Assembly: GCA_035765895.1 (NCBI GenBank)
Contig: DASTWL010000014.1
Span: forward strand, 16,804-80,803
DNA: 64,000 nt
From: Verrucomicrobiia bacterium
GTDB taxonomy: Bacteria; Verrucomicrobiota; Verrucomicrobiia; Limisphaerales; DSYF01
Direction of reading: 5' to 3'
Shown: positions 5,721-64,000 of the stretch, piece by piece
How positions within the stretch are numbered: position 1 is the first letter of the stretch
Layout of the letters: each line of letters opens with the position of its first letter
Notes under the pieces: generated by a model
What the model was told of the DNA's origin: nothing
Databases searched by the model: none
Seen by the model: only the letters and a program-made list of their open reading frames with translations
Position numbers and translations under genes: made by a program

Positions 5721-8700
5721 CTACTGGCGCAGGCGATAAAATTCCGCCGCATTGGTGGTGGACAAAGGCTGCGGGTTGGATTGATTTGCCTTGTCGGTCC
5801 AGGGTCCGCTTACCGCAGGCGCACTTTGCAGCGTGCCGTCGCCGGTCCAGGAAAGCTGCCCGTTCTGGATGCTCAACCGTCCCGGTGGCACGACCGCGGG
5901 GAAGCCAAGGTCCTGCGCGGAGGCCGCGACGACCACGTTGGTAAACTCGGCAAAGGTCGATCCGTTGCCGCAACGCAGCCGGATGTTGTTGAACGTATTG
6001 TTCATGGAGACCGTCAACGGCGATTGCGGTTGGTTGGCCAGACTCTTGGAGAAGTCGGGATCCAGCCAGATGGACTCGGCCGTGGGGCCGTTGGAGGCAT
6101 ACACGCTCTTGATCACGAACGTATGCCATTCGCCCGGCACGATGGGCGTAATGGGCAACACATCGGGCTCACCCGCCTCCTTGGCATCCGCACTCCAATT
6201 CGTGGACAGCCAGGCGTTGCCGACCAGCAATCGTTCGCTGTTGTCCTGGAAGAAATGCAGGCCGCCAAAGGAGCCGCCGGCGTTGGGATCAGTTTGTGGG
6301 AAGTCGTAAAACACCATGCTGAACCGCGCGTAAAGCGTGTTCGTGGACGCGGGGCCGAAATTGCCGTTGAGCCAGCCGTTCTGCGAATCCCACAAGGTCA
6401 CGTATGAGCCTTCGTAAACATCGAACGGCCCATCCAATTTTACCGGCAGCGTGGGATACGAATCCGCCGTAAAGGACCACGTCGCGTAATACGGCGTGTT
6501 GTTCGAGTCCGTCAAACTGACTTGCACCGTGTGCGCCGATCCCGGCGTGAAGGCACTGGGCGGCTGGTAACTCATCGAGATGGAGCTGGCCGTGACGGTG
6601 AAGCTCGGGTCCACCGGATTGCCATCCAAAGTCATGACGACCGTGTTGGTGCCGATGCCGTAGGAGCCGAACAACACATCCACACCCACGGGCGTGGACA
6701 CCGGCGCGGACGAGGCGTTGACGGCAGGAACATAGTTTTGAAATACCGGATCCATCGAGGGGGCGAAGCCAACCCCGTCCGAAGTCGCCGCCACCAAGAT
6801 GTTGGAATACAGGGCGCTGGCCGGCGCGAAGCCCGCACGCAGACGGATGTTGTTGAACGCATTGTTGCAGGAAAGCTCCAGCGGGGGATTGGGTTGGGCG
6901 GCTTCAGTCTGGCCAAAGTCCGGGTCCAGCCAAACTTTAACCGTGGCATTGCCGCCGCCGGCCGGATAATCCGCGCGCACGACAAACGTGTGCCATTCAT
7001 TGGTCGCAAAAGGTATGTAGGGAGGAATGTCCGTGTCGGGAACCGCCGCCGCCACGCTCCAGTTGGCGGTGCCACCACCCTTGCCGGTCAGCAACCGCTC
7101 GGTGTTGTCCTGGAAAAATTGCAGGCCGCCCCAGGTGGGACCGGGTGGATTCAGATTAACAAAGTCCGCGCTGAAACGGACATACAGCGTTTTCGCAAGC
7201 GTCCCCTGATAATTGGTCCCGATCCAGGGATCGTTGGTCGCGGCGAAAATGACGGTGTCCACATTGTTGCTGGCGGCAAACGTCCGGTTCAGCGCGATCG
7301 GCAGGGCGGCGAAACCGGTCGTAAAAGTCCACGTGTTCGTGAACGAACTGCTGTTCGCATCCGTGACCACCAGTTGAACGGTGTGCAGCGTGCCCGAACT
7401 CAGGGGCGTCGAGGGTTGGTAACTGATCCCGAGGATGCTCGGGGAAATCGCGCTCGTGTCCGGCGTGACAGCGCTGCCGCCATCAATGCGGAGCGAGGCG
7501 GACTGGATGGGGTAACCGCCCACGAGCACCTGCGCGCCGATGCTGGTATTGGTGGCGATGTCAAACGATCCCGGCGCCGGAAGCTGCGCCTGGAATTGCG
7601 GTGCCACCGAAGGTGGAAATCCCACGTCGGTCGGTTGCGCGCCCACGATGATGTTGGTCCACGTGGCGCTGGCCGTGCCATTGCCGCAGCGGAGCCGGAC
7701 GTTGTTGAAACTGACATCCGCGCTCAGCGTGACCACATTTGTCTGCGCTTCCTGCGGTTGGCTGAAATCGGGATCCAGCCAGATTTTCACGCTGTCGTTG
7801 CCATTGGTCTGAAAGTCGATGCGCTCGACGATGGTATGCCATTCGCCCAACACCACGGGCGTCAGTGGATTGAGATTCATCTGCAGGCCGCCCGCATCCA
7901 GGCTCCAGTTGGTGGAAACCCACGCGTTGCCGGCGATCAGCTTTTGCGCATTGTCCTGCATGAAATGCAAACCGCCGTAACCGCCGCCATTGCCGGTTTC
8001 GCCATTCAGGTCATTGAAGACCATGCTGTATCGGGCATAAAGAGTCCGGACGGAGTTGGTGTCATAGTTGGTGCCCAGCCAGGCTTCACCGGCGGCTGTA
8101 AGAATCGTCAGATCATTGCCACCGCCCGTGGTCAGCGGTCCGGCCAGCGCCACCGGCAATGCCGCGTAGCCCGTGGTAAAGCTCCACGTGTTGGTGTAGG
8201 AAACCGTGTTGTCGTCCTGCACGATCACCCGAACCGTGTGCGTCGTGCCATAGTCAAATGTCGAGACCGGCGTGTAACTGATGCCCATGAGACTCGAACT
8301 GCCGGTGACGGTGGGCGTGACCGCATTGCCGTCGAGCGAGAACGACACGGACGCCAAATTCAGCGGCACACCGCCGGAGGCCACATTCAGGCTGATCGTG
8401 GCGTTCGTCGCCACGCTCAGAGCACCCGCCCCGGGCGAAAGCGCCTGAAACGACGGTGGCGTGGCGGAAATAATCGTCAGCCGGTCAAACTGATAATCCT
8501 GGCCGTTGCCAGGCGAGGTGCCGGCATTGCGCCGGATGAAGGCCGACTGGGCGATGGGCGCATTCGCGATGGTCCCGGTGAAACTGGCCCCAGTGGCCAG
8601 ATCGGTGAACGTATAAGTCGTGGCACTGTTCAAGGTGAACTTGTAGGTGACAAATTGCTGGTAGGCATACTGAAAGTTGGTCGCCACCCCCACGCTCGTG

Positions 8701-15713: not shown

Positions 15714-17042
15714 ATGAGATCAGCCCTGATCGTCGATGACGACGCGGATTACCGCGCGCTGGTGGCCGACCAGTTGCGAACCGGCGGCTGGGCTTTTTGG
15801 GAGGCGGACAACGGCGAGCGCGCCATGGAGCTGATCCGCGAACACCGGCCGGCGGTCGTGGTCTGTGACCTGTTGATGCCGCGCGGCAACGGGTTCCAAG
15901 TCTGCCAGAATTTGCGGTCCGATCCCCAATTGCGCGGCACGCGCATTGTCATCACCACGGGCCGCTCGTTTCCCAGCGACCGGCAGGCCGCCCTGGAAGC
16001 AGGAGCCGACGCTTATTTTGTGAAACCGTTCGATGTGCCCACGCTGGTGCACATGTTGCAGGAGCTTGTTGAGAGCCCGACCACCACGCCTCCGCCGCCG
16101 GCCGCCGGTGCTGCAGACGAACGCGTCTGGTTGAAATTCTGGGGCGTGCGCGGTTCGATTGCCACGCCCGGTCCGGCCACGGTTGGTTACGGTGGCAACA
16201 CGGCATGCGTCGAACTGCGCGCCCACGGTCAGATCATCATCCTGGACGCAGGCACGGGCTTGCGCGCGCTGGGCCGTGAACTGACGCGCGAATTCAAGGA
16301 ACAGCCCCTGCAGTTAGACATCCTGCTCACCCACACGCATTGGGACCACATCCAGGGGCTGCCGTTCTTTCAACCTCTTTACCGGTCCAACAACCGCATC
16401 CGCATCTTCGGCTACGAAGGGGCGCGCAACGGGCTGTTCAAAGTCCTCTCCAGCCAGATGGAAAGCCCCTACTTCCCCGTGGGTTTCGAGGAACTGCCCA
16501 GCAACGTCGAGATTGATGAATTGCGGGACATGGATTTCCCGGTGGGCAACGTTCGCGTGCAGGCATTCTTCGCCAACCACCCGGGCATTTGTGTGGGCTA
16601 CCGGCTGACGACCCAGGCCGGCTCCGTGGCTTTTTTCCCGGACAACGAACCGCCCAACCGGCTCCATCACCGGCCCGAGGGAAGTCCGCCGGCCGTCAAC
16701 ACCCGCTTTGCGCAGAGCGAATCGCGCAAGCTGGTCGAGTTCCTGCGGGACACGGATGTGTTGATTTTGGATGCCCAATACGATGCGGAAGAATACGAAC
16801 GGCACAAGGGCTGGGGCCACGGCTGTGTGAACGACGTCGTTGAACTCGCCATCGCGGCCCACGCCAAACGGCTTTACCTCTTTCACCACGATCCGGACCA
16901 CGACGACGCGAAGATTGGTTCCATGGTGGAACAGGCCCGGCAACTGGCCGCACAGCGGCATTCGACCATCGAGATTGAGGCCGCCCGCGAAGGGATGGTG
17001 GTTCAACTGAACACCCCGAAGCCGGCCGGCGGCGAAACGTGA
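15714..17042 (+). CDS. Response-regulator receiver domain fused to an MBL-fold metallo-hydrolase
   Basis: REC motifs LIVDDD, VVVCDLLMPRGNGF and YFVKP. A Pro-rich linker follows. MBL motif LLTHTHWDHIQGLPFF plus a later HHDPDHDD. Confidence 0.85.
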   Translation: MRSALIVDDDADYRALVADQLRTGGWAFWEADNGERAMELIREHRPAVVVCDLLMPRGNGFQVCQNLRSDPQLRGTRIVITTGRSFPSDRQAALEAGADAYFVKPFDVPTLVHMLQELVESPTTTPPPPAAGAADERVWLKFWGVRGSIATPGPATVGYGGNTACVELRAHGQIIILDAGTGLRALGRELTREFKEQPLQLDILLTHTHWDHIQGLPFFQPLYRSNNRIRIFGYEGARNGLFKVLSSQMESPYFPVGFEELPSNVEIDELRDMDFPVGNVRVQAFFANHPGICVGYRLTTQAGSVAFFPDNEPPNRLHHRPEGSPPAVNTRFAQSESRKLVEFLRDTDVLILDAQYDAEEYERHKGWGHGCVNDVVELAIAAHAKRLYLFHHDPDHDDAKIGSMVEQARQLAAQRHSTIEIEAAREGMVVQLNTPKPAGGET

Positions 17043-17060
17043 GCCAGCCGCGCGGCGCGC

Positions 17061-17447
17061 TCAGCCCTTCCAATCCAGCGCCCGTTTCTTCAGGGCATAG
17101 ACGTAACCCACGACGAGAATTCCCAGGAAGGAAAGCATGGCGCCCAAAATCAGGCCCGCCTGGTGACGTAACATGTCCTTGTAAACCACCGCCCACGGAT
17201 AGAGAAAGACCACTTCGATGTCGAAGAGGATGAACAGCATCGCCACCAGGTAGAACTTTACCGAAAGACGCGTGCTGCCCTCGCCAATGGGGAGCATGCC
17301 GCACTCGTAAGCCGTATCCTTGATCTTGGACCGTTTCGCGGACCGGCCAAGCATCACTGAGCCCACGAGCATGCCGCCGGTGAACAGGACCGCCAAGCAG
17401 CCGAGCATCAGGACCGGCAAATACTGCTGAAGTTGCGTCGTCTCCAC
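17061..17447 (-). CDS. nuoA: NADH-quinone oxidoreductase subunit A (solitary copy)
   Basis: YECGMLPIGEGSTRLSVKFYLVAMLFILFDIEVVFLYPWAV matches the NuoA/NdhC core. 128 aa if the GTG at 17447 is the start (start uncertain). No other nuo genes flank it. Confidence 0.8.
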   Translation of the reverse strand: METTQLQQYLPVLMLGCLAVLFTGGMLVGSVMLGRSAKRSKIKDTAYECGMLPIGEGSTRLSVKFYLVAMLFILFDIEVVFLYPWAVVYKDMLRHQAGLILGAMLSFLGILVVGYVYALKKRALDWKG

Positions 17448-27994: not shown

Positions 27995-29386
27995 TTAGAA
28001 CCGGCCCTTGAGGCGGCCCTTCTTCAAAAAACCGTCGTAATGACGCATCAACAAATGCGACTCGACCTGACGCATGGTGTCCAGCATCACACCGACAGTG
28101 ATCAGCATGGACGTGCCGCCGAAAAATTGTGCCACCGGATACGGAACGCCCATCATGCGATACAGGAGCATGGGAATCACGGCAATGATGACCAAAAAGA
28201 ACGCGCCGGCGAACGTGATCCGGGTCATGGAAAAGTGCAGGTAATCGCTGGTGGCCTGGCCGGGGCGAACCCCTGGAATATAACCGCCGTTCTTCTTCAG
28301 GTCGTCCGAAATCTGCAATTCATTGAATTGCGTGGCCACCCAGAAATAGGAGAAGAACAGGATCATCAGCGAATAAATGGTCAGATAAAATCCGGAGCCA
28401 TCGCTCAGATGAATCGAAAACCAGTTGAAGAGGTCCTTGAGAAATTTGTTTTGCACCATGCCCCCCACAAACATGAAGAACTTCTGGGGGAACATCAAAA
28501 TCGCCTGAGCGAAGATGATCGGCATCACGCCGGCATAATTGACCTTGAGCGGCATGAACGAGGTTCCGCCGGCGAACACCTTGCGGCCCACGGCCCGTTG
28601 GGCGTATTGCACCGGAATTTTGCGCTGAGCCTGGGTGACCGCCACAACCCCGGCAATCACGGCGGCCAGCAACGCGATGAGAATGCCGGCTTCGCCAACC
28701 TTCAGCTTGTTTTCGCTGCCGGAGCTTCCAAACATGTCCACCAATCCCTGAAACGCCTGTGGCAGGCGGGCCACAATGCCGATGGTGATGATGAGCGAGA
28801 TGCCGTTGCCGATGCCCCGATCGGTGATTTGTTCGCCCAGCCACATGAGCAACATGGTGCCGGTCGTGAGGATCAAAACGGTCTGAATGCGATACCACCA
28901 GATCATGGAATCGCTGTAAAGCACCAGCCGGCCTATGCCTTCGCCAAATATTTTGTTCGGGTTTTCCCAGCCCAGCGCCATCGCCGCGCCCTGGCCAAGG
29001 CAGAGCAGCACGGTCAGGTAGCGCCCGTATTGAATCAGCTTCACACGTCCGCCTTCTTCACGCGCCAGCTTGCTCAACTGGGGCACGACGGCGGTCATCA
29101 GCTGAATGATGATGGTGGCGCTGATGTAGGGCATGATGCCCAGCGCGCCGATGGCGCAGTGCTCCAGCGCTCCACCGGTGAACATGCTATACATGCCCAG
29201 CACCGAGGAACTGGCATGCGCGTTCTGGGCAAAAAAATTGGCGAGCGCCGTGCCATCCAGCCCGGGAATGCGGACGACCGCCGCGATGCGGCAGATCGCC
29301 AGAACCACCATTGTGAAGATGATCCGGGATTTTAGTTCCGGAATCTTGAAGCAATTGCTGAAGGTGTTGGCGATGTTGGCAAACAT
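27995..29386 (-). CDS. secY: Preprotein translocase subunit SecY
   Basis: 463-aa polytopic membrane protein with GIMPYISATIIIQL, ITDRGIGNGISLII and GGYIPGVRPG. Confidence 0.97.
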   Translation of the reverse strand: MFANIANTFSNCFKIPELKSRIIFTMVVLAICRIAAVVRIPGLDGTALANFFAQNAHASSSVLGMYSMFTGGALEHCAIGALGIMPYISATIIIQLMTAVVPQLSKLAREEGGRVKLIQYGRYLTVLLCLGQGAAMALGWENPNKIFGEGIGRLVLYSDSMIWWYRIQTVLILTTGTMLLMWLGEQITDRGIGNGISLIITIGIVARLPQAFQGLVDMFGSSGSENKLKVGEAGILIALLAAVIAGVVAVTQAQRKIPVQYAQRAVGRKVFAGGTSFMPLKVNYAGVMPIIFAQAILMFPQKFFMFVGGMVQNKFLKDLFNWFSIHLSDGSGFYLTIYSLMILFFSYFWVATQFNELQISDDLKKNGGYIPGVRPGQATSDYLHFSMTRITFAGAFFLVIIAVIPMLLYRMMGVPYPVAQFFGGTSMLITVGVMLDTMRQVESHLLMRHYDGFLKKGRLKGRF

Positions 29387-29883: not shown

Positions 29884-30525
29884 TTAAGCTGTCGCCGTCG
29901 CCGTGGCCGGCTCGGCCTTTTTCATTTCGATGCCGCGCGCCTTGTAAATGTTCTCGCGCAGGCGGAGGCTCAGCAAGGCGTTCAGCGTCGCCTTGACCAC
30001 ATTGGCGGAATTCTTGGAACCGAGAGACTTGCTGAGAATGTCCTTCACCCCCGCCGATTCCAGCACGGCGCGCACCGTCTTGCCGGCGATGATGCCTGTG
30101 CCGGGTGACGCCGGGCGCAGCAAAACCCTTGCGCCATCAAAGTGCGAATAAACCTCGTGCGGAATGGTCGGGCCGTTCAGCGCCACGCCCACCATGTTGT
30201 TGCGGGCCATTTCGCCGCCGCGCCGGATGGCGTCGGCCACTTCACTGGCCTTGCCCAGGCCCACGCCGACGCGTCCCTTCTTGTCGCCCACGACAACGAG
30301 GGCGCTGAAATTGAACCGGCGTCCGCCCTTGACCACCTTGGCCGAGCGGTTGATGAACACGACCTTCTCCACGAGTTCGTCGCCCGTCTGGCCAAACTCG
30401 CGCGACTGGTCGGACGACCTCGGCCGGCGGCCCCGGGGCCCACGTGCGGGACGTGAATCGGCGGGCTGCTCGGGCGCGGGCGCGGGCGCGGGCGTCGCGT
30501 TGTCTGCAACAATTTCTTCTTTCAT
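29884..30525 (-). CDS. rpsE: 30S ribosomal protein S5 (Pro/Arg-rich N-terminal extension)
   Basis: [36 protein letters not shown]. There is no rpmD (L30) between it and rplO (6-nt gap). Confidence 0.96.
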
Positions 30526-30530
30526 GGAAA

Positions 30531-30896
30531 CTAGAACTTTAGACCTGCTTCGCGCGCGGCGTCCGCCAGCGCCTTGACCTTGCCGTGATACGGATTGCCG
30601 CCACGGTCAAAAACCACCCGGGTGATGCCCTTTCCCATCGCGGCCTGGGCCGCTTGCTTGCCGATTTCAACGGCACTCTTCACGTTGGCCGAGAGCTTTT
30701 CACCGGCAGCCCGCCCTTTCGAACGGGTCGATACCGTCGCCAAGGTGGCGCCCTTCGTATCGTCAATGAACTGCACGTAGATGTGGGTGTTGGTAAAACA
30801 CGCACTCATGCGCGGACGTTCGGTCGTCCCATTGACCTTGGTGCGGATGCGCCAGTGGCGCCGCCGCTTCAAATCGTGTTTCTTTTGAACTTTCAT
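30531..30896 (-). CDS. rplR: 50S ribosomal protein L18
   Basis: [63 protein letters not shown]. Confidence 0.96.
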
Positions 30897-40905: not shown

Positions 40906-43900
40906 ATGAACTTTTCACGTCCTGGCCTCATCGCCTGTCTCGCCCTGATCAATTTCGCTTTGTCAGCCCGGGGCGGCGTGGCGCCCAGCATCATCAGCGG
41001 TCCCGTCGGCCGCGTCGCGCCCGCCGGCACAAACATCGCATTCAGCGTAACCGCCGACGGGACGGCTCCCCTGCTCTATCAATGGTATTTCAACAGCAAC
41101 GCCATCCCGGATGAGACAAATGCCACGTTGCTTTTGACCAATGTGCAATCGGCCAATGCCGGGCCGTATTTCGTGACGGTGTCGAACGATTTCGGCGCCA
41201 CCAACAGCGGCGTCGCGAATTTGGTGGTGAACAACGCCGCGCCGATTTTCTGGTCACAGCCGCAAGGCATGTCAACGTGGCCGGGATCTGCCGCGCTGCT
41301 CTCCGCGGGTTATGTTGGCAGCACACCGCTGACGCTTCAGTGGCGTTTGAACGGGGTCGATTTGCCGGGCGCGACGAACGCGGCCCTGGCCCTGCCCAAC
41401 GTGCAATTCAGCGACGGTGGCAGTTATGTGCTGCTGGCGTCCAACGCCTACGGCACCCGGCTTACCACACCGGCGCCGTTGAACGTCGCGGAATTGGCTG
41501 CCTGGGGCGCCGGCGCGGCCAGCGTCGTCACCCTGACCAACTACGGGCAGAGCTTCCCGCCCAACGGCCTGAGCAACCTGCTGGCCGTGGCGGCCGGCGG
41601 CTGGCACAGCCTCGCGTTGCTGCCCAATGGCCGGGTGGCAGCGTGGGGCTACAACAACGTCGGCCAGATCAACAACTTCATTCCCGCGACCAACGTGGCC
41701 GCCATTGCCGCCGGCTGGGAACACAACCTGGTTCTGCGCAGCAACGGCACGCTGGCGGCCTGGGGTTACACGGCCTACAGCCTGACGCAAATCACCGCCG
41801 CCATGACGAACGTCGCCGCCATTGCAGCCGGCTGGTTGCACAACGTCGCCGTTCGCAGCAACACCACCGTGTTTGCCTGGGGATTAAATGCGTATGGCCA
41901 GACGAATGTCCCGCCGGGCTTGAGCAACGTCGTGGCGGTGGCCGCCGGCTACGGTCACAGCCTGGCCTTGAAAGCCGACGGCCAAGTGGTCGCCTGGGGA
42001 CTCAACACCAGCGGGCAAACCAACGTGCCGGCGGATTTGAGCGATGTGGTGGCGATTGCGGCCGGAGCCTCCAACAGCCTCGCCTTGACGGTGGACGGCA
42101 CCGTCGTCGCGTGGGGCGCCAACGACTACGGGCAAAGCACGGTGCCCGCCGGACTGAGCAACGTCATTGCCATCGCGGCCGGCGGCGCCCATGCGCTCGC
42201 CCTCCAAAATGACGGCACAACGGTGGCCTGGGGGCTGGACAATCATCAACAGGCAACGGTGCCCGCCAGCCTGCCGACGGTGGCGGGAATTGCTGCCGGC
42301 CAGTTTCACAGCCTAGGTCTGCTCACGGACAATTCGCCTCACTTTGTGCGCCGGCCATTGGATCATCTCGGCTATGAAAACAATCCCGCCTACCTGAGCG
42401 CGGCCGCCTGCGGGCTCGCACCGCTGCACTATCAATGGCTCCGCGGCGTAACAGCCGTTGAAGGAGCAACGAACGCCACCCTGAGTCTGGCCAGCGCGCA
42501 ACTCGGCGACACGGGAACCTACCAACTGGTGGTCACCAACGATCTGGGCGCCATCACCAGCACACCGGTCGCATTGACGATTCTTTCGTCCCGGCCCTAC
42601 TTCGTCATCCAGCCGACCAATTACGTCACCCTCGCCGGAACCAATGCGACCTTTTCGGCTTTGGCCACCAGCCCTTGGGGCAGCAGCTATCAATGGCAAT
42701 TCAACGGCGCGAATCTCCCGAATGAGACCAACGCCACGCTGACCCTCGTCAACGTGCAACTGGTCAACGAGGGCTCCTACTCGGTCGTGGCCAGCAACCT
42801 CAACGGCAGCATCACGAGTTCGAACGCCTACCTCGACGTCCTCACGCTGCCGGAGGCGCTGAACGCCACAAACCTGACTTGGAACACCTTTGGCGACGTG
42901 CTTTGGAAGCCCGCATTTTCGCCGGCCTACGCCAATCCCGGCGTCGGCCTGTGCGGTCCGCTGACGCCCACGCAGCAAGGCTTCTTGCAGACAACGGTCG
43001 TCGGCCCCGGCACGTTGAGTTTCGCGTGGCAGGCGCCGGTTTACGCCAACTTGAATTTCGAACTCGACGGTCTCCAACAGGGTTTTGTTCAGATGAGTTC
43101 AACGTGGCAGCCGCGGACGTATTATCTCTCCGCGGGCTCGCACGTTCTGACCTGGATTGCCTCCCTGTCCTTCACCCCGTTCGGCTCGGGGTATGGCTAT
43201 CTGGACGCGGTCACGTTCACACCCGGAGCCACGCCCGTGACGCTCACGGCACAGCCCGCCAGCAAAACATTGCCCGCCGGAACCAATGCGATTTTCAGCG
43301 TGGGCGCCGCGGGCACTCCGCCCTTGAGCTACCAATGGAGTTTCAACGGCACCAATCTGCCCGGTGCCACCGGAGCTTCGCTGGCCCTCCATGACATTCA
43401 GGCCGGCGCCACCGGCACCTACCGCGTAACCGTCAGTAATGACTACGGTGGACAATCGAGCACCAACTTTTCGCTCGTCGTTACGCCAGCCGCGCCCGTT
43501 CTGTTGACCCAGCCAATCGCCCAGCAGATGCTGGTGGGCGGCGCGGTGCTGTTTAGTGGCACGGCCCAAGGCACCCAGCCCATCACCTACCAATGGCGCC
43601 GGAACGGCGTTGATCTGCCGGGCGCCACGAACACCTTGCTGATGCTTGCAGACGTGCAACTGACAGACGCGGCGGATTACTCCTTGTCGGCCAGCAACGT
43701 GATCGCCGAAACAGTCAGTTCCAATGCCTGCCTGTTCGTTTACGAACTGCCTGACTTGGTCTCCGCCTTGGGCGGAACCGGCATCACGTGGAGCACCGAC
43801 ACCAACGCGCCCTGGTTTCCTCAAACCAACGTGACGCATGACGGCGTGCTGGCTGGTCAAAGCGGCGCGCTGGCGACAAACAGTCAGTCGTCCGTGCTCA

Positions 43901-55875: not shown

Positions 55876-57642
55876 CTAGGGTTTCTTTTCAGCCAGACCC
55901 AGCTGCTCCCGCACGAGTTCCGGCAGAAATTTCAACGGAATCGAACCGTTCGCCAGCACCGCCTGGTGGTAGCGGCTCAGCACAAAACGGTCGCCCAGTT
56001 CGTGTTCGATTTGCTGGCGCAGCCGGTAATGTGCCATGCGGCCGGTGAAGTAGGTCGAAAGCTGCACCGAACTTTGCTTGGCCCGGATGATTTTCAGCCG
56101 GGCTTCGCCCTCGGACTGGAACGCCTGGTTCGCCAGTAGATCCATCGCCTCCTCATCGGTCATGTTCTCGCAATGCATGCGGTGATCGAGAATCGCGTTG
56201 CCGACGGCGCGCAGGTAAAACTTGAGTTGCGTCAGGCGCAGCGCCAGGTCGCCGTCGCCATAGCCCTGGTCCAGCATCATCTGCTCGGTGTAAACCGCCC
56301 AGCCCTCGATGTAGGCGCCCGAGCCCAGCACCTTGCGGATGAGCGACGGATTGCGATTCGCGTATTCCAACTGCACGTAATGCCCGGGGTAGGCTTCGTG
56401 AATCGTGAGGATCTGCAACATCTGGTGATTGTATTCCTCGAAGAAGCTGCTCACGCGCGCCGCGTCCCAATCGGCCGGCGGTGGGCTGACCGCGTAAAAA
56501 CCCACGGCATTGGTATCGAGCGGCGGCGGCGAATTCATGAACGCCGTTGAGTTGCCGCGCTGGAACTCCGGCATCTCGATGACGCGACAGCGATCGGGAT
56601 CCGGCAACGGGAGAATGTTGTGCCGGCGGATGAAATCCTTCACCTGCACCACGTCGCGCTTCACGTCGCGCACAATGGTTTTCGCCGTGCTGTGATCCTG
56701 GGCAATGTGCGCGAGCACCCGGGCGATGGTCGTGCGCCGGCCGGCGGCATCATCCGGCGGCAGGGCTTGCTGCGGGAAATACCGGCCCCAGAGCTGCCGC
56801 GCGATGACATACATGTCGTTTCGCACGCGGTCGAATTCGGTCTGCGCGTCGGCATAGACCTGGTCCGCGGTCAGCCCCGCATCCAATTCCAGTTCCAGCT
56901 TGCGGTTGAATTTTTCCCGGCCAATACGCCATTCGCCGTGCGCCCGCGGCAGCAGGTCGTCTTGGAGAAATTTCTGGTAGTCCCGGAGCGCCGGCAAAAT
57001 CGCCTGGACCGCCGCCTTGAGTTCGGCCAGTTGCCTGGTCTTCCCCGCCACGGTGTAAAGATCGTGCTCGTAGAAATTGAGGGAACCCTGGTTCTGTTTG
57101 ATGGCCGTCTCAACGTAAACGCGCGGCGGATTGACCAGATTTTGCCGGGCCGCGGCCAGCACTCCGGGCACCTGACGGATGCGCGCAATGGCATTGGACA
57201 CGTTGACTTCCTGCGGCAGGGAAGATTGCGCGAGCAGATCAAAAATCGTCCCGCTGATGAACTGGTTGTAAGTGCGCGGATCAGTGACGAAGGCATCAAA
57301 GTGGTCCGCCATCCAGATGTCCTTTTGCAGTTCGTGCGCGAAGATGTCGTAATCGATCTGGCCCGCGCGGGTGAGCTTCGTCCGGTCCACGGCCTGCGGC
57401 AGTTGCGCCAGCGTTTCGCGCGTGTGTGCCCGCCAGCGCGCCCGGGCCGCCGGCGTCAGGTCGTCCATGAACCGGTCGTAGTCATGGTCGCCCAGCGACG
57501 TCGCCTCGACGGGCTGCATCTGGAATGTGGCCTCCAGTTGCTGACGGAAGAACGCCGCCAGCCGGGCGTCTTCGGACTGGGCCACCGCCGGCCGGGCGGC
57601 CAGCAACAACAACGGAGCGAGAACAGCGCAAAGGGATTTCAT
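55876..57642 (-). CDS. DUF885 family secreted protein
   Basis: Signal peptide MKSLCAVLAPLLLLAARPAVA from the ATG at 57642. TIHEAYPGHYVQLEY matches the DUF885 HExxPGH-type motif. The ORF-track version (to 59247) runs antisense through eno and is rejected. Confidence 0.85.
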   Translation of the reverse strand: MKSLCAVLAPLLLLAARPAVAQSEDARLAAFFRQQLEATFQMQPVEATSLGDHDYDRFMDDLTPAARARWRAHTRETLAQLPQAVDRTKLTRAGQIDYDIFAHELQKDIWMADHFDAFVTDPRTYNQFISGTIFDLLAQSSLPQEVNVSNAIARIRQVPGVLAAARQNLVNPPRVYVETAIKQNQGSLNFYEHDLYTVAGKTRQLAELKAAVQAILPALRDYQKFLQDDLLPRAHGEWRIGREKFNRKLELELDAGLTADQVYADAQTEFDRVRNDMYVIARQLWGRYFPQQALPPDDAAGRRTTIARVLAHIAQDHSTAKTIVRDVKRDVVQVKDFIRRHNILPLPDPDRCRVIEMPEFQRGNSTAFMNSPPPLDTNAVGFYAVSPPPADWDAARVSSFFEEYNHQMLQILTIHEAYPGHYVQLEYANRNPSLIRKVLGSGAYIEGWAVYTEQMMLDQGYGDGDLALRLTQLKFYLRAVGNAILDHRMHCENMTDEEAMDLLANQAFQSEGEARLKIIRAKQSSVQLSTYFTGRMAHYRLRQQIEHELGDRFVLSRYHQAVLANGSIPLKFLPELVREQLGLAEKKP

Positions 57643-57807: not shown

Positions 57808-59106
<1,299 letters not shown>

Positions 59107-59182
59107 ATCAATCTGGTAGGGCAGACCTGCTGGTCTGCTTCTCAGGCGGCGCCGCAACGCCGCCCTACCGACAAAAAGCTCA

Positions 59183-59220
59183 CCCCGGAAGTCAGCCATG
59201 GCTTCCGGGGTTTTGCTTTG
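59183..59220 (+). terminator. Rho-independent terminator of eno
   Basis: ccccggaag-tcagccatgg-cttccgggg is a 9-bp stem, followed by ttttgctttg. Confidence 0.85.
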
Positions 59221-59280
59221 CCGTTCACCATTACTCGGAGAGTTCATTTATTTGGATTTGCTCCAAATCTTCTACCTCAT

Positions 59281-59320
59281 TAAGCGAACATAGGTGAACA
59301 GAAGCGAACTTAAGCGAACA
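59281..59320. repeat. Four tandem 10-bp repeats (plus strand TAAGCGAACA; minus strand TGTTCGCTTA)
   Basis: taagcgaaca / taggtgaaca / gaagcgaact / taagcgaaca, head to tail at exact 10-bp spacing, between the eno terminator and the stop of the 59330-59938 gene. Confidence 0.8.
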
Positions 59321-59329
59321 GTTTTTCAT

Positions 59330-59938
59330 TCAATTCCCGTTGTTGGATTTGCCCTGTTCCTTCCCGCCCGCGCTCGAACGATCCCAGCCAAAGAGAATTG
59401 CGTGGACCCTCTCCAGCTTCTCGTCATGGCTCAGGGTGGTATCATCTCCCACCACCGCCAGATACGCCCTAAGTTTCGGCAGCTCCTTCACAGACGCAGC
59501 AGTCGCTTCATAATCAAAATACTTTTCGGCCAGCCTTAACCGCGCCCGCCGGATGTCATTGTCCTCACTGTCCAGCAAAAGCTTGGTGAATGACACGAGA
59601 TGCGCCAGTTCCTCCGGCTTTTCGCGGGCCAGCTTCAAGACGGCCTTGCCAACAAGCTTTACTGCTGCGTTCCGCAGACTGGCCACGCTCACGGGCAACT
59701 CATTCAATTCGTCGGCCGCCGCCTGCGCTTCAACCAACTCCTTGACCTGCCGTTCCCGCGCCCGGCGACGATAGAACCGGCCCAAGCTGGCAATGGTGGT
59801 CGTCACCCCGAATTCCTTTTGGACGCGCTCCAACGTTTTCGCGTAACCCAGGTTCTCGTCGAACAACCAGCCCTCCAATGTCTCGCGTTGCTCGCGCGTG
59901 AGTTGGTTCCACGTTGAATCGTCGCGCAGCTTTCTCAT
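59330..59938 (-). CDS. Hypothetical protein (202 aa), translationally coupled to the upstream KTSC gene
   Basis: The ATG at 59938 overlaps the KTSC stop (ATGA). The N-terminus STWNQLTREQRETLEGWLFDENLGYAKTLERVQKEFGVTTTIASLGRFYRR looks helix-turn-helix-like. This resemblance to phage Mu gp27/DUF3486-type proteins is an impression, not a verified hit. Confidence 0.55.
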   Translation of the reverse strand: MRKLRDDSTWNQLTREQRETLEGWLFDENLGYAKTLERVQKEFGVTTTIASLGRFYRRRARERQVKELVEAQAAADELNELPVSVASLRNAAVKLVGKAVLKLAREKPEELAHLVSFTKLLLDSEDNDIRRARLRLAEKYFDYEATAASVKELPKLRAYLAVVGDDTTLSHDEKLERVHAILFGWDRSSAGGKEQGKSNNGN

Positions 59939-60141
59939 CGGGAAAGTTTGCGGCATGAATACCGGTTCTTGATGCGGGCATGGAAATAACGGCCATGCGA
60001 AGCCGCGCGCAGCAGGCCGGCGTATTCTGAATAGGGGACACGTGAGTAGGCGTAAACGCCGCCGCTGTGGAAGACGATGACCAATGTGCCATGCCCGTCG
60101 TAATCCACCGCGGCCAGATTCGAGGATTGAACTGAGATCAC
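59935..60141 (-). CDS. KTSC domain protein
   Basis: 68 aa with a GTG start. SSNLAAVDYDGHGTLVIVFHSGGVYAYSRVPYSEYAGLLRAASHGRYFHARIKNRY follows the KTSC domain pattern (S.I..v.YD...L.V.F..G..Y.Y..VP...y..l..A.S.G.yf...I...Y). Confidence 0.7.
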   Translation of the reverse strand: MISVQSSNLAAVDYDGHGTLVIVFHSGGVYAYSRVPYSEYAGLLRAASHGRYFHARIKNRYSCRKLSR

Positions 60142-60209
60142 ACGTCCACACTAACGATGCAGGGGGTTTGCTAAAATGGGCGTTAAATACCGTGGGATTT
60201 TCCACCTAC
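60093..60209. repeat. Direct repeat copy A (117 bp): KTSC 5' end (49 bp) plus its 68-bp upstream region
   Basis: Aligns without gaps to 63185-63301 with about 12 mismatches (about 90% identity), counted by eye. Confidence 0.85.
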
Positions 60210-60461
60210 CTGGCCGCAGAATTGGCTGCCCCGATGCAGGCCTTGGACATTCTCGACTATTTGATGGCGAAGACGACCTGCGAGCAGCCAAGGAACTATG
60301 CGAAAGCTCAAGGGCCGATTGACCATGTCTGAGCAAAAAACGGCTGCCCATGCGGCGGGTTTGCAACCGTTTTTCTCTTGCATTCGAAAACCGATACCAA
60401 AAACTCAAACTACCGCTGAACTCAGCTCGCACGGAGGGGACGGCCACAAACCAAAAGGAAA

Positions 60462-62465
60462 ATGGCGGACATGAAAACGATCAGGAGTCGTGCAATCGCA
60501 ACCGCAGCCTGCCTGCTGTTCGCAACCGCAGTTCACACCTACGCCATTGAAGGGCTGAAACTCTCCCTGCAATGCAGCAACGTCGTCCTGACGTGGCCGA
60601 GCCTGGACGGCGAAACGTATATCGTCCAATACTGTCCAACGCTCGACACGAATTCGTCGTGGAAAACGCTCACCAACTTCATGCCAGCCGAAGTTGGAAT
60701 GACCAACACGACGTTCGTCCATTCCAACGCCGTGATAATGGCGGTCCATGACGGAGGCGGCTCATTTGCCGCCATGTCGTCCGGCCAGAGCAGTTCAATG
60801 GCTCTGGCCGTTGAAAGCGACACGCCAAGCGAGCCGATGGCATTTCCAACCAACGGCATTGGTTCAGGTGTCCCGCTTCAACTTTTCCCTCCCGGGTTCG
60901 ACATGACGCCTTACTACATTTACGACCCATCCAGCGACGAGTTCGTGAGCGGTTCTTTGCTTTCATCCTCAACGGATGGCGAGATGCAAGCGAACGATAT
61001 TGAGTTTCCACCAGCAGAGGAAGGCGGGGGCATCACCAATAGCAGCGGAGATTTCATCGCCGAAACGGCGTTCTACCGTGTCGTTCGGAATGGCGTTCAT
61101 CTGGTTGGCATCACCGACGGAATAAACCTGTCGGGCGTTGTCACAATCCCCGTGGAGGTTGGAACCGACGCAGGCATCTTGGCCGCATTGAGCGTCAGAG
61201 AGGACGGTTCACCCGTCGGGAACTCACAGGCCATTGCACCTTTTCAGGGACCGCTGCAAATTGTTCTGGATACAACTGCGATGAGTAACGGCGTCCATCA
61301 AATCACGGGTTATGCCTCATGGATTTCGGGCGGGGATGAAGACGGCACGACTGGCGTGGATGCAGAGTCGCCGCCGATCACGGTCAATGTTTACAACGAG
61401 ATTACGTTCCCAACTTGGATTGAGCATTTCGGGGAACTTTACGACTCGGTTCTGATTACCGCTCAGTTGGGCCATGCGGACGCCGACTGGTATGTGGACG
61501 TGTATGGCAGCGGTGCGGGCTACATCGGAACATTTTCGGGTCACACGACCGATGGAACGATTTACGGTTGGTGGGACTTGGTTGGGCCTGGTGGCGTGGC
61601 TTACACGAACGAAGCATATTTTGATTTCGTGGTGTCGTCTGATTATGCGGGGCAGGCACCCCAAGGGAACGGCCCGCAGCCGAACGGAAGTTCAACTTCG
61701 GTTCCCAAGCGAACCTATCGGCAAACCGATAACTGGATTAGCAAAGGCATGTGGGTCACGGCCAATCTGCAAGCATGGGAGGGTTTGACAGGCAGTGATT
61801 TGCTGGACATCGCAACGGATGGATTTGTTACCATCGCCGACGGAGCAGGATTGACAACACGTCCATCGCACTCGATAGGGGAAGCATTCCGAATTCAGTA
61901 TGGTTCAAACATTCCAGTATCCACAAGGAACAGCCAATGGCAATCTCTGCGAAATGCCATCTACCACCCTGAATCTCGCAACTTTTTCTACCTTGGACAC
62001 GGCTCACCCGATGGAATTGGCGGAAGTGCGGACACAAACCGCTTCATCACCGCCTCAGAGATTTCCACCAATCTTCACACATTACCTGCCGGGCAGACAA
62101 ACCGTCACGGGTATCGCTTTGTATTCCTCTATGGGTGTGAAACCGCCAGCGGGAAACTGCCCGAAGCATTCGGCATCATTCATCGGGAAAATGTTCCCGT
62201 TGTTGATTACGTTGATGCTGCCCTAACGCCCGGGGCGTTCGTTGGCTGGAACGACAAACAAAAGGCAGGCATCCTTGGTTCGACCTTCACAGACAACGCC
62301 CATTTCATCCAGCACTTCCAATGGGAGTGGACAACCAGCGGCTTGGGTGTCAGTGAATGCTTGGATCGTGCAAAGAATCTTTATTCCGACGTGGGCTTTA
62401 TTGACCGCAGTAAACTCAAGGTCTTTGGAAACTGGGAACTGCATCCGCTCGACTTCAACAGGTGA
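60462..62465 (+). CDS. Secreted protein with N-terminal FYR-type module, Ig-like domain and C-terminal caspase-fold (CHAT/C25-like) His-Cys domain
   Basis: Signal peptide MADMKTIRSRAIATAACLLFATAVHTYA. VVLTWPSLDGETYIVQYCPTLDTNSSWKTL .. AETAFYRVV. FFYLGHGSPDG (His513, codon 61998-62000) and FVFLYGCETASG (Cys559, codon 62136-62138) resemble the CHAT HG and ACxT(A)xG dyad motifs. Confidence 0.6.
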   Translation: MADMKTIRSRAIATAACLLFATAVHTYAIEGLKLSLQCSNVVLTWPSLDGETYIVQYCPTLDTNSSWKTLTNFMPAEVGMTNTTFVHSNAVIMAVHDGGGSFAAMSSGQSSSMALAVESDTPSEPMAFPTNGIGSGVPLQLFPPGFDMTPYYIYDPSSDEFVSGSLLSSSTDGEMQANDIEFPPAEEGGGITNSSGDFIAETAFYRVVRNGVHLVGITDGINLSGVVTIPVEVGTDAGILAALSVREDGSPVGNSQAIAPFQGPLQIVLDTTAMSNGVHQITGYASWISGGDEDGTTGVDAESPPITVNVYNEITFPTWIEHFGELYDSVLITAQLGHADADWYVDVYGSGAGYIGTFSGHTTDGTIYGWWDLVGPGGVAYTNEAYFDFVVSSDYAGQAPQGNGPQPNGSSTSVPKRTYRQTDNWISKGMWVTANLQAWEGLTGSDLLDIATDGFVTIADGAGLTTRPSHSIGEAFRIQYGSNIPVSTRNSQWQSLRNAIYHPESRNFFYLGHGSPDGIGGSADTNRFITASEISTNLHTLPAGQTNRHGYRFVFLYGCETASGKLPEAFGIIHRENVPVVDYVDAALTPGAFVGWNDKQKAGILGSTFTDNAHFIQHFQWEWTTSGLGVSECLDRAKNLYSDVGFIDRSKLKVFGNWELHPLDFNR

Positions 62466-62471
62466 GTTCTT

Positions 62472-63170
62472 ATGGAACAACTAATACACATTACTGCCAC
62501 GTATTCCAATGCTTTGCTCGTGGCTATCCTTCCGCACGTTTCTGACTTCGCAAAGAAGTTGGACTTGCCAATCGCACAACCGATCACGCAGGAACAAGTG
62601 CTTCGCTTCAATCCTAATCCATATAAGGGGCACTTTTCGGGGACCGTCATCTTAAAAAACCACTGGTGGTTTCACTTTGATGAAGGTGGCTATGTGGACA
62701 GTTTCAGTTCGGCGACCAATTGGTTTACGGCGGATGAAGATGCCGTGGACAACACGCAATACTACACGGGCACAACAAGGATGACCACGAATGAAATCAT
62801 TGGCTTTGCCCGAACCGTTCTTCTCAAACTTGGCTACCCGCCAGTCCTCACGCATTCAGATGCCATCCCGGAGTTGCAGGGACCGTATAATCTGAAACAT
62901 GGAGGGCATGTTACATACAGCCGTGTTTTATGGGAACCCGTCACAGATCACGACAGCGGCGACTACAGCAAAGTCCGTGTGGAGATAAACACTCAAGAAA
63001 GGGCGCTGGTTGGCCTTTACATCTGGTTTACAAAAACCAATCGAACAAGAATCGCGGCCCCGTTAAAAATTGATGTGGAACCAGAACTCGAAACCGATTT
63101 TCGGAAGCGAACGAAGGTTGGCGGCATGTTCATCCGCAGCAACGCCCCACCTGTGCTGCCAAAGAAGTGA
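62472..63170 (+). CDS. Hypothetical protein (232 aa), 6 nt downstream of the caspase-like gene
   Basis: Clean ORF in a visibly lower-GC stretch (42% in the sampled line at 62461). No signal peptide and no recognised domain. Confidence 0.6.
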   Translation: MEQLIHITATYSNALLVAILPHVSDFAKKLDLPIAQPITQEQVLRFNPNPYKGHFSGTVILKNHWWFHFDEGGYVDSFSSATNWFTADEDAVDNTQYYTGTTRMTTNEIIGFARTVLLKLGYPPVLTHSDAIPELQGPYNLKHGGHVTYSRVLWEPVTDHDSGDYSKVRVEINTQERALVGLYIWFTKTNRTRIAAPLKIDVEPELETDFRKRTKVGGMFIRSNAPPVLPKK

Positions 63171-63233
63171 TTATTCGGGTGCCGGCCCGTCGTAATCCAC
63201 CGCGGCCAGATTCGAGGATTGAACAGCGATCAC
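63171..63233 (-). pseudogene. Truncated KTSC gene remnant (first 16 codons conserved, then 4 unrelated codons and a stop)
   Basis: Reverse-complement translation from a GTG start gives (M)IAVQSSNLAAVDYDGPAPE then a stop, against (M)ISVQSSNLAAVDYDGHGTLV.. in the intact copy. Homology ends at 63185. Confidence 0.65.
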
Positions 63234-63301
63234 ACGTCCACACTAACGGCGCACGAAGTTTGCTGAAATGGGCGATAAATGCCGTGGGATTTTCCGCCTA
63301 C
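63185..63301. repeat. Direct repeat copy B (117 bp), partner of 60093-60209
   Basis: Same alignment as copy A. Its distal end coincides with the stop codon (63298-63300) of the upstream minus-strand gene. Confidence 0.85.
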
Positions 63302-63999
63302 TTGCTGTGTCCGCCTCGGGTCGGCCAGTTCAACGGGCGTTCTGAGCTGGCAAGAAACGGAAACAGCCGGTGAAACATTTCATCCGCCCGCTTCCTTTCT
63401 TTATACCACTCACGTTTGCGGTAGAGCTGCCAGGCCTTCGGAGATTTCTTCTCCAGCTCACCTTTGCTGAAGTGATGGAGCAGTCGCATCATGCCCAGCC
63501 GTTCCAAGGCCACCCGCCAATCCCGCGCTTTGTTCCGGCCCTTGCCGTCAGGGCCGGGAATGTCTTGGGGCCGGTTGGTTTTCACCCATTTGCGAAACTC
63601 CTGGATGATTTCCTCGTTGGTAAAGACGCCCCAACATATTTGCACCACGGTATGCTCCGTGCCGCTCCCGTAAATGACCGAAGCCGGGACATTGGAATAC
63701 CGCAGCTTGCCCAGTCGTGCGAGCACTTCGTCGTTGAGTTCGGGATTCTCCAGCCTCGCCCGCGCGTTGGCTTCATCAATCAATCGCCTTTGTTGTGCCA
63801 CCATCTCCACAATGTCCTTTGCGTCGAGGGGAATGCCGCGCTCGAAGGGGAGCAACTGAACCGAATCCACCAGGCCGCGCGGGGGAGTGTATGCTCGGAA
63901 CTCCCGCTCCGCTTTCGTAAGCAACTGCCATGGCTTCGGGAAACTTCCCGTCAGCCGGTGAACCTCGCCCAGCTTGAGGGGCAACGCATCGGCCAGCAC
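63298..63999 (-). CDS. Hypothetical protein, 5'-partial at the window edge
   Basis: The open frame runs to the end of the window. Charged C-terminal region GRNKARDWRVALERLGMMRLLHHFSKGELEKKSPKAWQLYRKREWYKERKRADEMF. No family was recognised. Confidence 0.55.
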   Translation of the reverse strand: MLADALPLKLGEVHRLTGSFPKPWQLLTKAEREFRAYTPPRGLVDSVQLLPFERGIPLDAKDIVEMVAQQRRLIDEANARARLENPELNDEVLARLGKLRYSNVPASVIYGSGTEHTVVQICWGVFTNEEIIQEFRKWVKTNRPQDIPGPDGKGRNKARDWRVALERLGMMRLLHHFSKGELEKKSPKAWQLYRKREWYKERKRADEMFHRLFPFLASSERPLNWPTRGGHSK

Positions 64000-64000
64000 T

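Follow-up and report, generated by a model that had tools for sequence, protein, structure and literature searches.

The 64,000-nt stretch of Verrucomicrobiia DNA analysed here (the window; positions 16804-80803 of contig C14 in genome G000) runs at its right end into a horizontally acquired island of 7.4 kb, which sits at the 3' end of eno between two diverged alleles of the eno tail. We consider it probable that this is an acquired unit linked to restriction-modification (RM) genes, which entered by Campbell-type integration through an eno tail carried on the element itself. The contig continues for 7.1 kb beyond the window end, and the island was followed in an extended locus, L001 (C14:74000-87935), for which the window coordinate equals the L001 coordinate plus 57196; coordinates above 64000 are window-equivalent and lie outside the 64-kb window. 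The island and its borders are as follows.

59052-59106, plus strand: left border repeat, segment A; the last 55 nt of eno with its stop codon (L001 1856-1910), completing eno and probably the crossover zone
59107-59181, plus strand: left spacer, a GC-rich palindrome (GGTAGGGC...GCCCTACC); the island-associated allele
59182-59221, no strand assigned: left border repeat, segment B; a terminator hairpin (ACCCCGGAAGTCAGCCATGGCTTCCGGGG) with T-run (L001 1986-2025)
59250-59268, no strand assigned: 7-bp inverted repeat, ATTTGGA/TCCAAAT
About 59,107-66,454 (window-equivalent): the acquired island, 7.4 kb, delimited by eno-tail repeats at both ends and by composition
66455-66607, beyond the window: right border repeat, with displaced eno tail, native-type spacer and terminator
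66700-67023 and 67030-67497, beyond the window: the right-flank genes, encoding ArsR and AHSA1

Acquisition is supported by the deviating base and k-mer composition, the flanking eno-tail repeat, the patchy distribution of the island gene p202 and the differing neighbours of eno in related genomes. On the same grounds, the proposal in the original prediction, made from the window sequence, that a lower-GC accessory island follows eno is upheld. In 1-kb windows, GC content is 0.56-0.67 over the first 59 kb of the window, with nearly all values at or above 0.58 (0.648 in the core region 41001-42000) and a sole low exception at 28001-29000 (0.557), and it falls to 0.50-0.57 over 59001-64000, the onset lying near 59150 at 300-nt resolution. 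Low GC persists beyond the window to about C14:84000 and then returns to 0.60-0.63. The island as a whole has a GC content of 0.550 against 0.622 for the 4.64-Mb genome, and the 8-kb window at C14:76001 (GC 0.553) is the fourth lowest among 1021 genome windows. Its tetranucleotide distance to the genome is 0.279, compared with 0.142 +/- 0.034 for windows of the same size, about four standard deviations above the mean, and only 4 of 1109 such windows match it. All island genes are single-copy in the genome. Further low-GC stretches were observed in G000 at C51:32-45 kb, C82:8-13 kb, C42:12-18 kb, C27:12-20 kb, C9:12.5-17.5 kb and C34:144-165 kb, with 5-8-kb windows at 0.52-0.56 across all six; the stretch on C51 is accompanied by a weak integrase match at 30413-30718.

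The last 55 nt of eno recur at L001 9259-9313 with 50 of 55 positions identical (91% in the repeat search), and the copies of the border repeat are spaced 7403 nt apart. All five differences are synonymous third-position changes, so that the same 17 residues are encoded by both copies, which suggests that both evolved as coding eno tails. The terminator segment recurs as well (L001 9372-9411; 90% over 40 nt), with a hairpin core of about 29 nt (ACCCCGGAAG...CCGGGG) identical in the two copies, and a terminator scan recovers both (L001 1986-2015 and 9373-9400). At the left border this terminator is bidirectional, serving both eno and the convergent p202 operon. Between the conserved segments, the spacers of 77 nt (left) and 60 nt (right) are unalignable, at about 49% identity. 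The left spacer shares 74% identity with its counterpart next to a related island (locus L023), and the right spacer matches, over its first ~26 nt, the eno tail of the same-genus genome G002 (TTGTAGCGGCGG-TCTATGACCGCCG versus TTGCAGCGGCGGGTCCATGACCGCCG, about 22 of 26 nt). From these two resemblances, we read the left copy as island-borne and the right copy as the displaced native tail, a reading for which the evidence of the compared sequences is moderate.

The start of the foreign DNA therefore most likely lies within the final 55 nt of eno, and the eno stop codon, spacer and terminator of G000 are probably island-derived. The border had been placed right after the eno terminator and has to be moved upstream, into the eno tail. 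The right border, expected outside the window, was located 2.45 kb past its end. The sequence beyond 64000 thus holds a matching border repeat, made up of the eno 3' end and the terminator and not of the 7-bp inverted repeat, and it holds no recombinase. The inverted repeat itself is present as described, and it was rejected as a border signal: its position is not conserved in L023, and it is probably incidental. After the AHSA1 gene on the right flank, a GC-rich, nested palindromic element some 100 nt long (CCCCTCACCC...CCTCTCCCCATCCGATGGGGAGAGG...GGGTGAGGGG; L001 10298-10410, C14:84297-84409) was observed, which has at least nine further copies in the G000 genome, a fold z-score of -4.2 and no Rfam family; in genomes from other families of the order, its 58-nt core is found up to ~20 times each, with 90-98% identity.

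The distribution of island genes among relatives is patchy. Of the 40 genomes searched besides G000, only two contain p202, and it is absent from both same-genus and all four same-family genomes; the genes adjoining eno differ in the same-genus genomes G001 and G002, in agreement with the predicted difference in content after eno. Upstream of eno, purD-like genes in G001 and symporter-like genes in G002 were observed (window 55876-57600 and L014/L015), and local gene order in the genus is very fluid.

No dedicated mobility gene accompanies the island. The original prediction had noted the lack of an integrase, transposase or tRNA in the visible part, and the same holds for the island in full: no recombinase was found in it with Pfam, NCBIfam, PHROGs or PADLOC, and no tRNA, tmRNA or Rfam family was found in the island or its flanks. 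A genome-wide run of PF00589 returned five tyrosine-recombinase matches, all on contigs other than C14. Neither an integrase nor an excisionase was detected in the island or in the called genes of about 12 members of its family (see below), and p202 and p330, another island gene, have no relatives in IMG/VR viral contigs or PLSDB plasmids.

Campbell-type integration fits these observations best, given the two selection-shaped eno-tail alleles, the missing recombinase, the RM cargo, the variable repeat lengths in the family and the presence of a relative at eno. In the proposed cycle, a circular form of the island bearing a copy of the eno tail would have arrived, and a single Campbell-type crossover between this tail and the chromosomal one would have inserted it; recombination across the flanking repeats would excise the island and regenerate the circle, and the RM cargo would stabilise the unit. 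The catalyst that we tentatively put first, at somewhat less than an even chance, is host homologous recombination. A recombinase supplied in trans is possible and less likely, and the conserved p3xx/KTSC/p202 module described below is an unlikely catalyst.

Two known kinds of element come close to this picture. Integrase-type elements such as e14 and phage 21 insert at icd of E. coli and bring a replacement for the 3' end of the gene. The arrangement at eno is the same in that an element-borne tail with synonymous differences restores the gene while the native tail is displaced to the far end; it differs in that no integrase or excisionase gene is present in the island or in the roughly 12 family members covered, and in that phage genes are absent. 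The cis-mobilisable elements (CIMEs) of Streptococcus thermophilus are flanked by att sites, carry no recombination genes and depend on a related integrative element. Like them, the island is bounded by att-like direct repeats and has no recombinase of its own, but no helper with the same attachment site was found in the G000 genome.

Several observations weigh against Campbell-type integration of an acquired island. No empty-site genome and no excised circle were found, so mobility is deduced rather than observed. No other record of the exact eno product was found, all contigs with the ArsR neighbour either have the island in place or do not extend far enough to decide, and the junction pattern was not found in metagenome contigs. 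Flanking repeats were not found at three family loci (L018, L019 and L024). A 46-nt repeat around the island of L021/L029 was downgraded, since its motif AGCCTTCAGCCTT recurs nearby and marks no convincing gene end; at L021 it has the look of a dispersed repeat. The spacers are palindromic and evolve fast, and their global identity to the G002 spacer (0.60 for the right, 0.57 for the left) is not decisive. Synteny around eno is poor on both sides within the genus, so that differing genes after eno are weak evidence alone. Finally, the island and the adjacent eno fragment diverge from L023 by similar amounts (81-87%), and the shared eno site may thus reflect descent rather than site preference.

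The island genes fall into a conserved backbone, RM genes and a nested cassette. The backbone and its end element, together with the RM genes, are listed here.

59277-59341, minus strand: end element; the last p202 codons and stop, ATG.AAAA.TG, and four TTCGC motifs 10 bp apart
59330-59938, minus strand: p202, 202 aa; backbone gene
59935-60141, minus strand: KTSC protein, 68 aa; its stop overlaps the p202 start (ATGA)
63298-64245, minus strand, running past the window end: p330, 315 aa from Met16 of a 330-aa open reading frame (ORF); backbone gene
64260-65615, minus strand: DNA methyltransferase, 451 aa, N6/N4-type; PF01555; PADLOC MTase_II, E 1.8e-37
65612-66388, minus strand: truncated MmeI-family type IIG gene, 258 aa, N-terminal part

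The tandem repeat of four 10-bp units that had been reported near the left border is there (59282-59321, Tandem Repeats Finder), and it forms part of a 65-nt element that is near-identical in 14 loci, directly after the p202 stop codon, with conservation ending past the fourth TTCGC. The element is single-copy in the G000 genome. The TTCGC motif falls in three different reading frames, which argues for conservation at the DNA level, and the element is a candidate protein-binding array. No second TTCGC array was found at the far end of the island.

The pairing of a KTSC gene with a 202-aa protein was also described correctly: the former matches PF13619 over model positions 1-58 of 58 (E 1.3e-20, 73.3 bits against a cut-off of 25), the 202-aa ORF follows it, and the two genes are neighbours at most loci of the family. 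In conflict systems, KTSC is considered a DNA-binding domain (PMC9503650). An AlphaFold2 (AF2) model of p202 (pLDDT 72) shows an N-terminal three-helix, helix-turn-helix (HTH)-like bundle followed by long coiled-coil helices, and KTSC and p202 are probably the binders of the TTCGC array. The p202 model has no Foldseek match in the PDB; a small-terminase-like reading of it was rejected as unsupported, the sole such match having rank 26 and E 9.7. The 210 homologues of p202 are 60-90% identical and carry no Pfam domain. In L034, L037 and L038, one or two extra genes of ~200-230 aa with no Pfam family were observed past p202; their N-termini (SKIA-LPENVR..VN.RL..GE....LAEWLN.LPEAQ) resemble the HTH region of p202, which suggests tandem p202 paralogues.

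p330 had been taken for a partial gene; it is in fact complete, and only the window end cuts it. Its family is large, with 296 homologues in a word-indexed search and 963 clusters at 50% identity in an exhaustive profile search of a representative library. Those p202 and p330 homologues that bear source names are almost all from Verrucomicrobiota, and none has a Pfam domain; ten distant p330 relatives likewise gave no Pfam match. The AF2 model of p330 (pLDDT 78) has no Foldseek match in the PDB or BFVD. For p330 and p202 together, there was no profile match to PDB sequences, no Foldseek match at E < 1 and no recombinase fold or motif.

The RM genes lie at the other end. In the methyltransferase, motifs I (FCGTG) and IV (SPPY) are visible, and no partner endonuclease for it was found in the island; it looks like an orphan. 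A distant paralogue of this gene (25% identity) was observed on C9 at 16423-17400. The MmeI-like ORF contains MmeI_N (E 1.2e-26) and the start of MmeI_hel, retains the D-X9-E-X-K motif, and spans positions 5-239 of a 959-position type IIG profile (PDLC03599, E 4e-96). With residues 1-278 of a 1016-aa, full-length enzyme from L033 it shares 71% identity, and similarity to full-length relatives ends about 15 codons ahead of its stop. It thus shares with MmeI-family type IIG enzymes the N-terminal nuclease/spacer part and the motif, but it lacks the methyltransferase, target-recognition and C-terminal domains of its full-length relatives (977-1016 aa). Judged by these alignments, the ORF is a remnant, not a working enzyme. 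The idea that it is a stand-alone conserved subunit was rejected, as truncation points vary by locus and full-length relatives exist. The island is also a compositional mosaic: third-position GC is 0.56 in the methyltransferase and in p232 of the nested cassette, 0.60 in p667 of that cassette, 0.65-0.72 in the KTSC gene, p330 and p202, and 0.79 in the MmeI remnant, compared with 0.86 in eno.

From gene content and order, the island belongs to a family in Verrucomicrobiota, with the layout MmeI-type IIG gene, variable defence cargo, p3xx (here p330), KTSC, p202 and TTCGC array; the MmeI-family gene occupies one end, the cargo the middle, and p3xx/KTSC/p202 the other end. In L023, p330-KTSC-p202 is contiguous, 84-89% identical to the trio described here, and also abuts eno, and the nested cassette is missing. 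Full-length MmeI genes (977 and 1016 aa) are found in L024-27 and L033, and the minimal members L024-27 consist only of MmeI, a 62-aa ORF and the p3xx-KTSC-p202 trio. The p3xx gene is missing from L033, L037 and L038. Chromosomal flanks vary among the family loci, and in one series of metagenome-assembled genomes (MAGs) the island is present twice, at separate sites. The flanking repeat at L033 spans at least 204 nt, with 93% identity between its copies, and the repeat at L031 is 27 nt long.

The cargo often lies between the two ends of a split MmeI gene, in the following loci.

L019: MmeI N-terminal residues 1-311; cargo, a TPR protein; MmeI C-terminal residues 846-967
L021/L029: MmeI N-terminal residues 1-121; cargo, an Eco57I-type methyltransferase and a PstI-like endonuclease; MmeI C-terminal residues 851-979
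L031: MmeI N-terminal residues 1-44; cargo, a different MmeI-like gene; MmeI C-terminal residues 932-967

In L018, the cargo is a type ISP enzyme. As judged from these arrangements, cargo has repeatedly been replaced within the MmeI gene, whose conserved ends serve as anchors. In L033, at 5760-7135, three MmeI C-terminal remnants (residues 898-923, 939-967 and 988-1011) were observed behind an intact MmeI-family gene; these stacked remnants look like scars of earlier gene replacements. A different cargo was observed in L037 (4156-7213), where a reverse transcriptase (RVT_1, E 7e-15) stands beside KTSC-p202 and is followed by a small Asn-rich ORF resembling the target of a diversity-generating retroelement.

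A cassette is nested between p330 and the KTSC gene (3.1 kb, genes on the plus strand) and consists of the following.

60093-60212, no strand assigned: repeat copy 1, 118-120 nt; KTSC codons 1-16 and 71 nt upstream; cassette edge
60462-62465, plus strand: p667, 667 aa, secreted (signal peptide); nested cargo
62472-63170, plus strand: p232, 232 aa; non-secreted partner of p667 with no Pfam match
63185-63304, no strand assigned: repeat copy 2, 118-120 nt; KTSC 5' remnant, abutting the p330 stop codon

The KTSC remnant that had been recognised from the sequence is the second copy of this repeat of about 120 nt, and the two copies are 90% identical. The cassette is a later insertion, since p330-KTSC-p202 is contiguous in L023 and a 118-nt segment there (nt 1932-2049) aligns with both island copies. 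The p667/p232 pair is conserved elsewhere in ordinary, non-island chromosomal settings. The original prediction of a caspase-like secreted protein with a 232-aa partner stands as far as the 667-aa and 232-aa ORFs are concerned, and the caspase-like part has motif support only. p667 has no Pfam match and no match among PDB sequences; its 102 homologues are without Pfam matches, and Ig-like regions occur in relatives. In the C-terminal part, G509, H510, G511 and C556 are invariant across 26 homologues, and one family member matches Peptidase_C25 weakly (E 0.084); p667 may have a caspase-like (clan CD) fold. In L045 (8001-12247), a Verrucomicrobiota contig, a homologous pair (63% identity) was observed two genes from a serpin (PF00079), which would fit p667 being a protease.

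Among the alternatives to Campbell-type integration, the best survivor is a strict long target duplication, in which a linear RM unit would have inserted 3' of eno and duplicated ~170 nt of target, after which the copies diverged and one spacer was swapped for another palindromic element. RM gene units inserted with long target duplication were reportedly described by Nobusato et al. in 2000. In a later survey, such units are smaller than 20 kb, are flanked by repeats longer than 30 bp and lack mobility genes; overlap of the repeats with gene 3' ends is frequent, GC can be lower in the inserts, and several phyla contain documented units with 46-420-bp repeats and no mobility genes (Furuta et al., 2010; PMC2853133). 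The island agrees in its size below 20 kb, its RM genes, its long imperfect repeats at a gene 3' end, its lack of mobility genes, its GC below that of the host and the allelic substitution of RM genes and type IIG parts. Specifically, it has a 7.4-kb insert, repeat segments of 55 nt and 40 nt and no mobility genes. Of the restriction and modification gene pair, it has the modification gene, whereas restriction is represented only by the N-terminal nuclease part of the truncated MmeI. The range of repeat lengths in the family, from 27 nt to at least 204 nt, and the 118-nt repeat of the nested cassette would also suit a target duplication. Yet we regard this explanation as improbable: the spacers between the conserved repeat segments are unalignable, the five synonymous differences fit two selected alleles better than a drifting dead duplicate, and the left-type spacer accompanies the related island in L023. 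The island further differs from these units in that its repeat copies hold non-homologous spacers and resemble two alleles, its restriction gene is truncated, and its family shares the p3xx-KTSC-p202 backbone and 10-bp array across many genomes; no backbone of this kind was noticed in the passages of PMC2853133 consulted. The cycle proposed in the literature for RM units with long flanking repeats is close to the Campbell-type cycle proposed here.

It is likewise unlikely that the island represents a new kind of self-mobile element, in which p3xx, KTSC and p202 would be the integration/excision or replication machinery and the TTCGC array its cis site, either an arm site or an iteron. In favour of such an element, only the trio and the array are conserved among members that differ in cargo and site, the minimal members have little else besides MmeI, one MAG series carries two copies at separate locations, the large p330 family is without a recognisable fold, and KTSC is regarded as DNA-binding (PMC9503650). 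Against it, no catalytic motif or fold of a recombinase, transposase or Rep protein was detected, the array has no counterpart at the opposite island end, the array lies anywhere from 60 to ~440 nt away from the flanking repeat, and p3xx is missing in three loci. The broader proposal that p3xx/KTSC/p202 and the TTCGC array form an undescribed self-contained module, which moves or maintains small defence islands without a known recombinase, is one that we regard as doubtful.

That nothing was inserted at all, and that an old, vertically inherited variable region acquired a duplicated eno tail by local rearrangement and owes its low GC to gene function, is very improbable: the similar divergence of island and eno fragment from L023 and the rather low GC of the right-flank ArsR and AHSA1 genes would suit it, but p202 is absent from all six same-family genomes, homologues of 70-90% identity occur in unrelated chromosomal contexts, the tetranucleotide composition is an outlier, and the cargo is mosaic with nested repeats.

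Overall, the island is of a known general kind, integrase-less and RM-linked, and what is new is the recurring backbone with its end array in Verrucomicrobiota. For annotation, this means that the end of eno in G000, from its stop codon to the terminator, is probably island-derived, and that the MmeI-like ORF should be read as a remnant. How RM and other defence genes move when neither an integrase nor a transposase is close by is a question that has stood since long target duplication was first reported. The island provides a concrete, recurring scaffold for it in a poorly studied phylum, with a fixed three-gene backbone, a DNA array and cargo swapped inside an MmeI-type gene, and this scaffold is directly testable for excision, DNA binding and cargo exchange. 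If the backbone and array did prove to be a self-contained module, they would represent a new class of carrier for RM cargo, and the large p330 family (~960 clusters at 50% identity) would supply the enzyme of the module.

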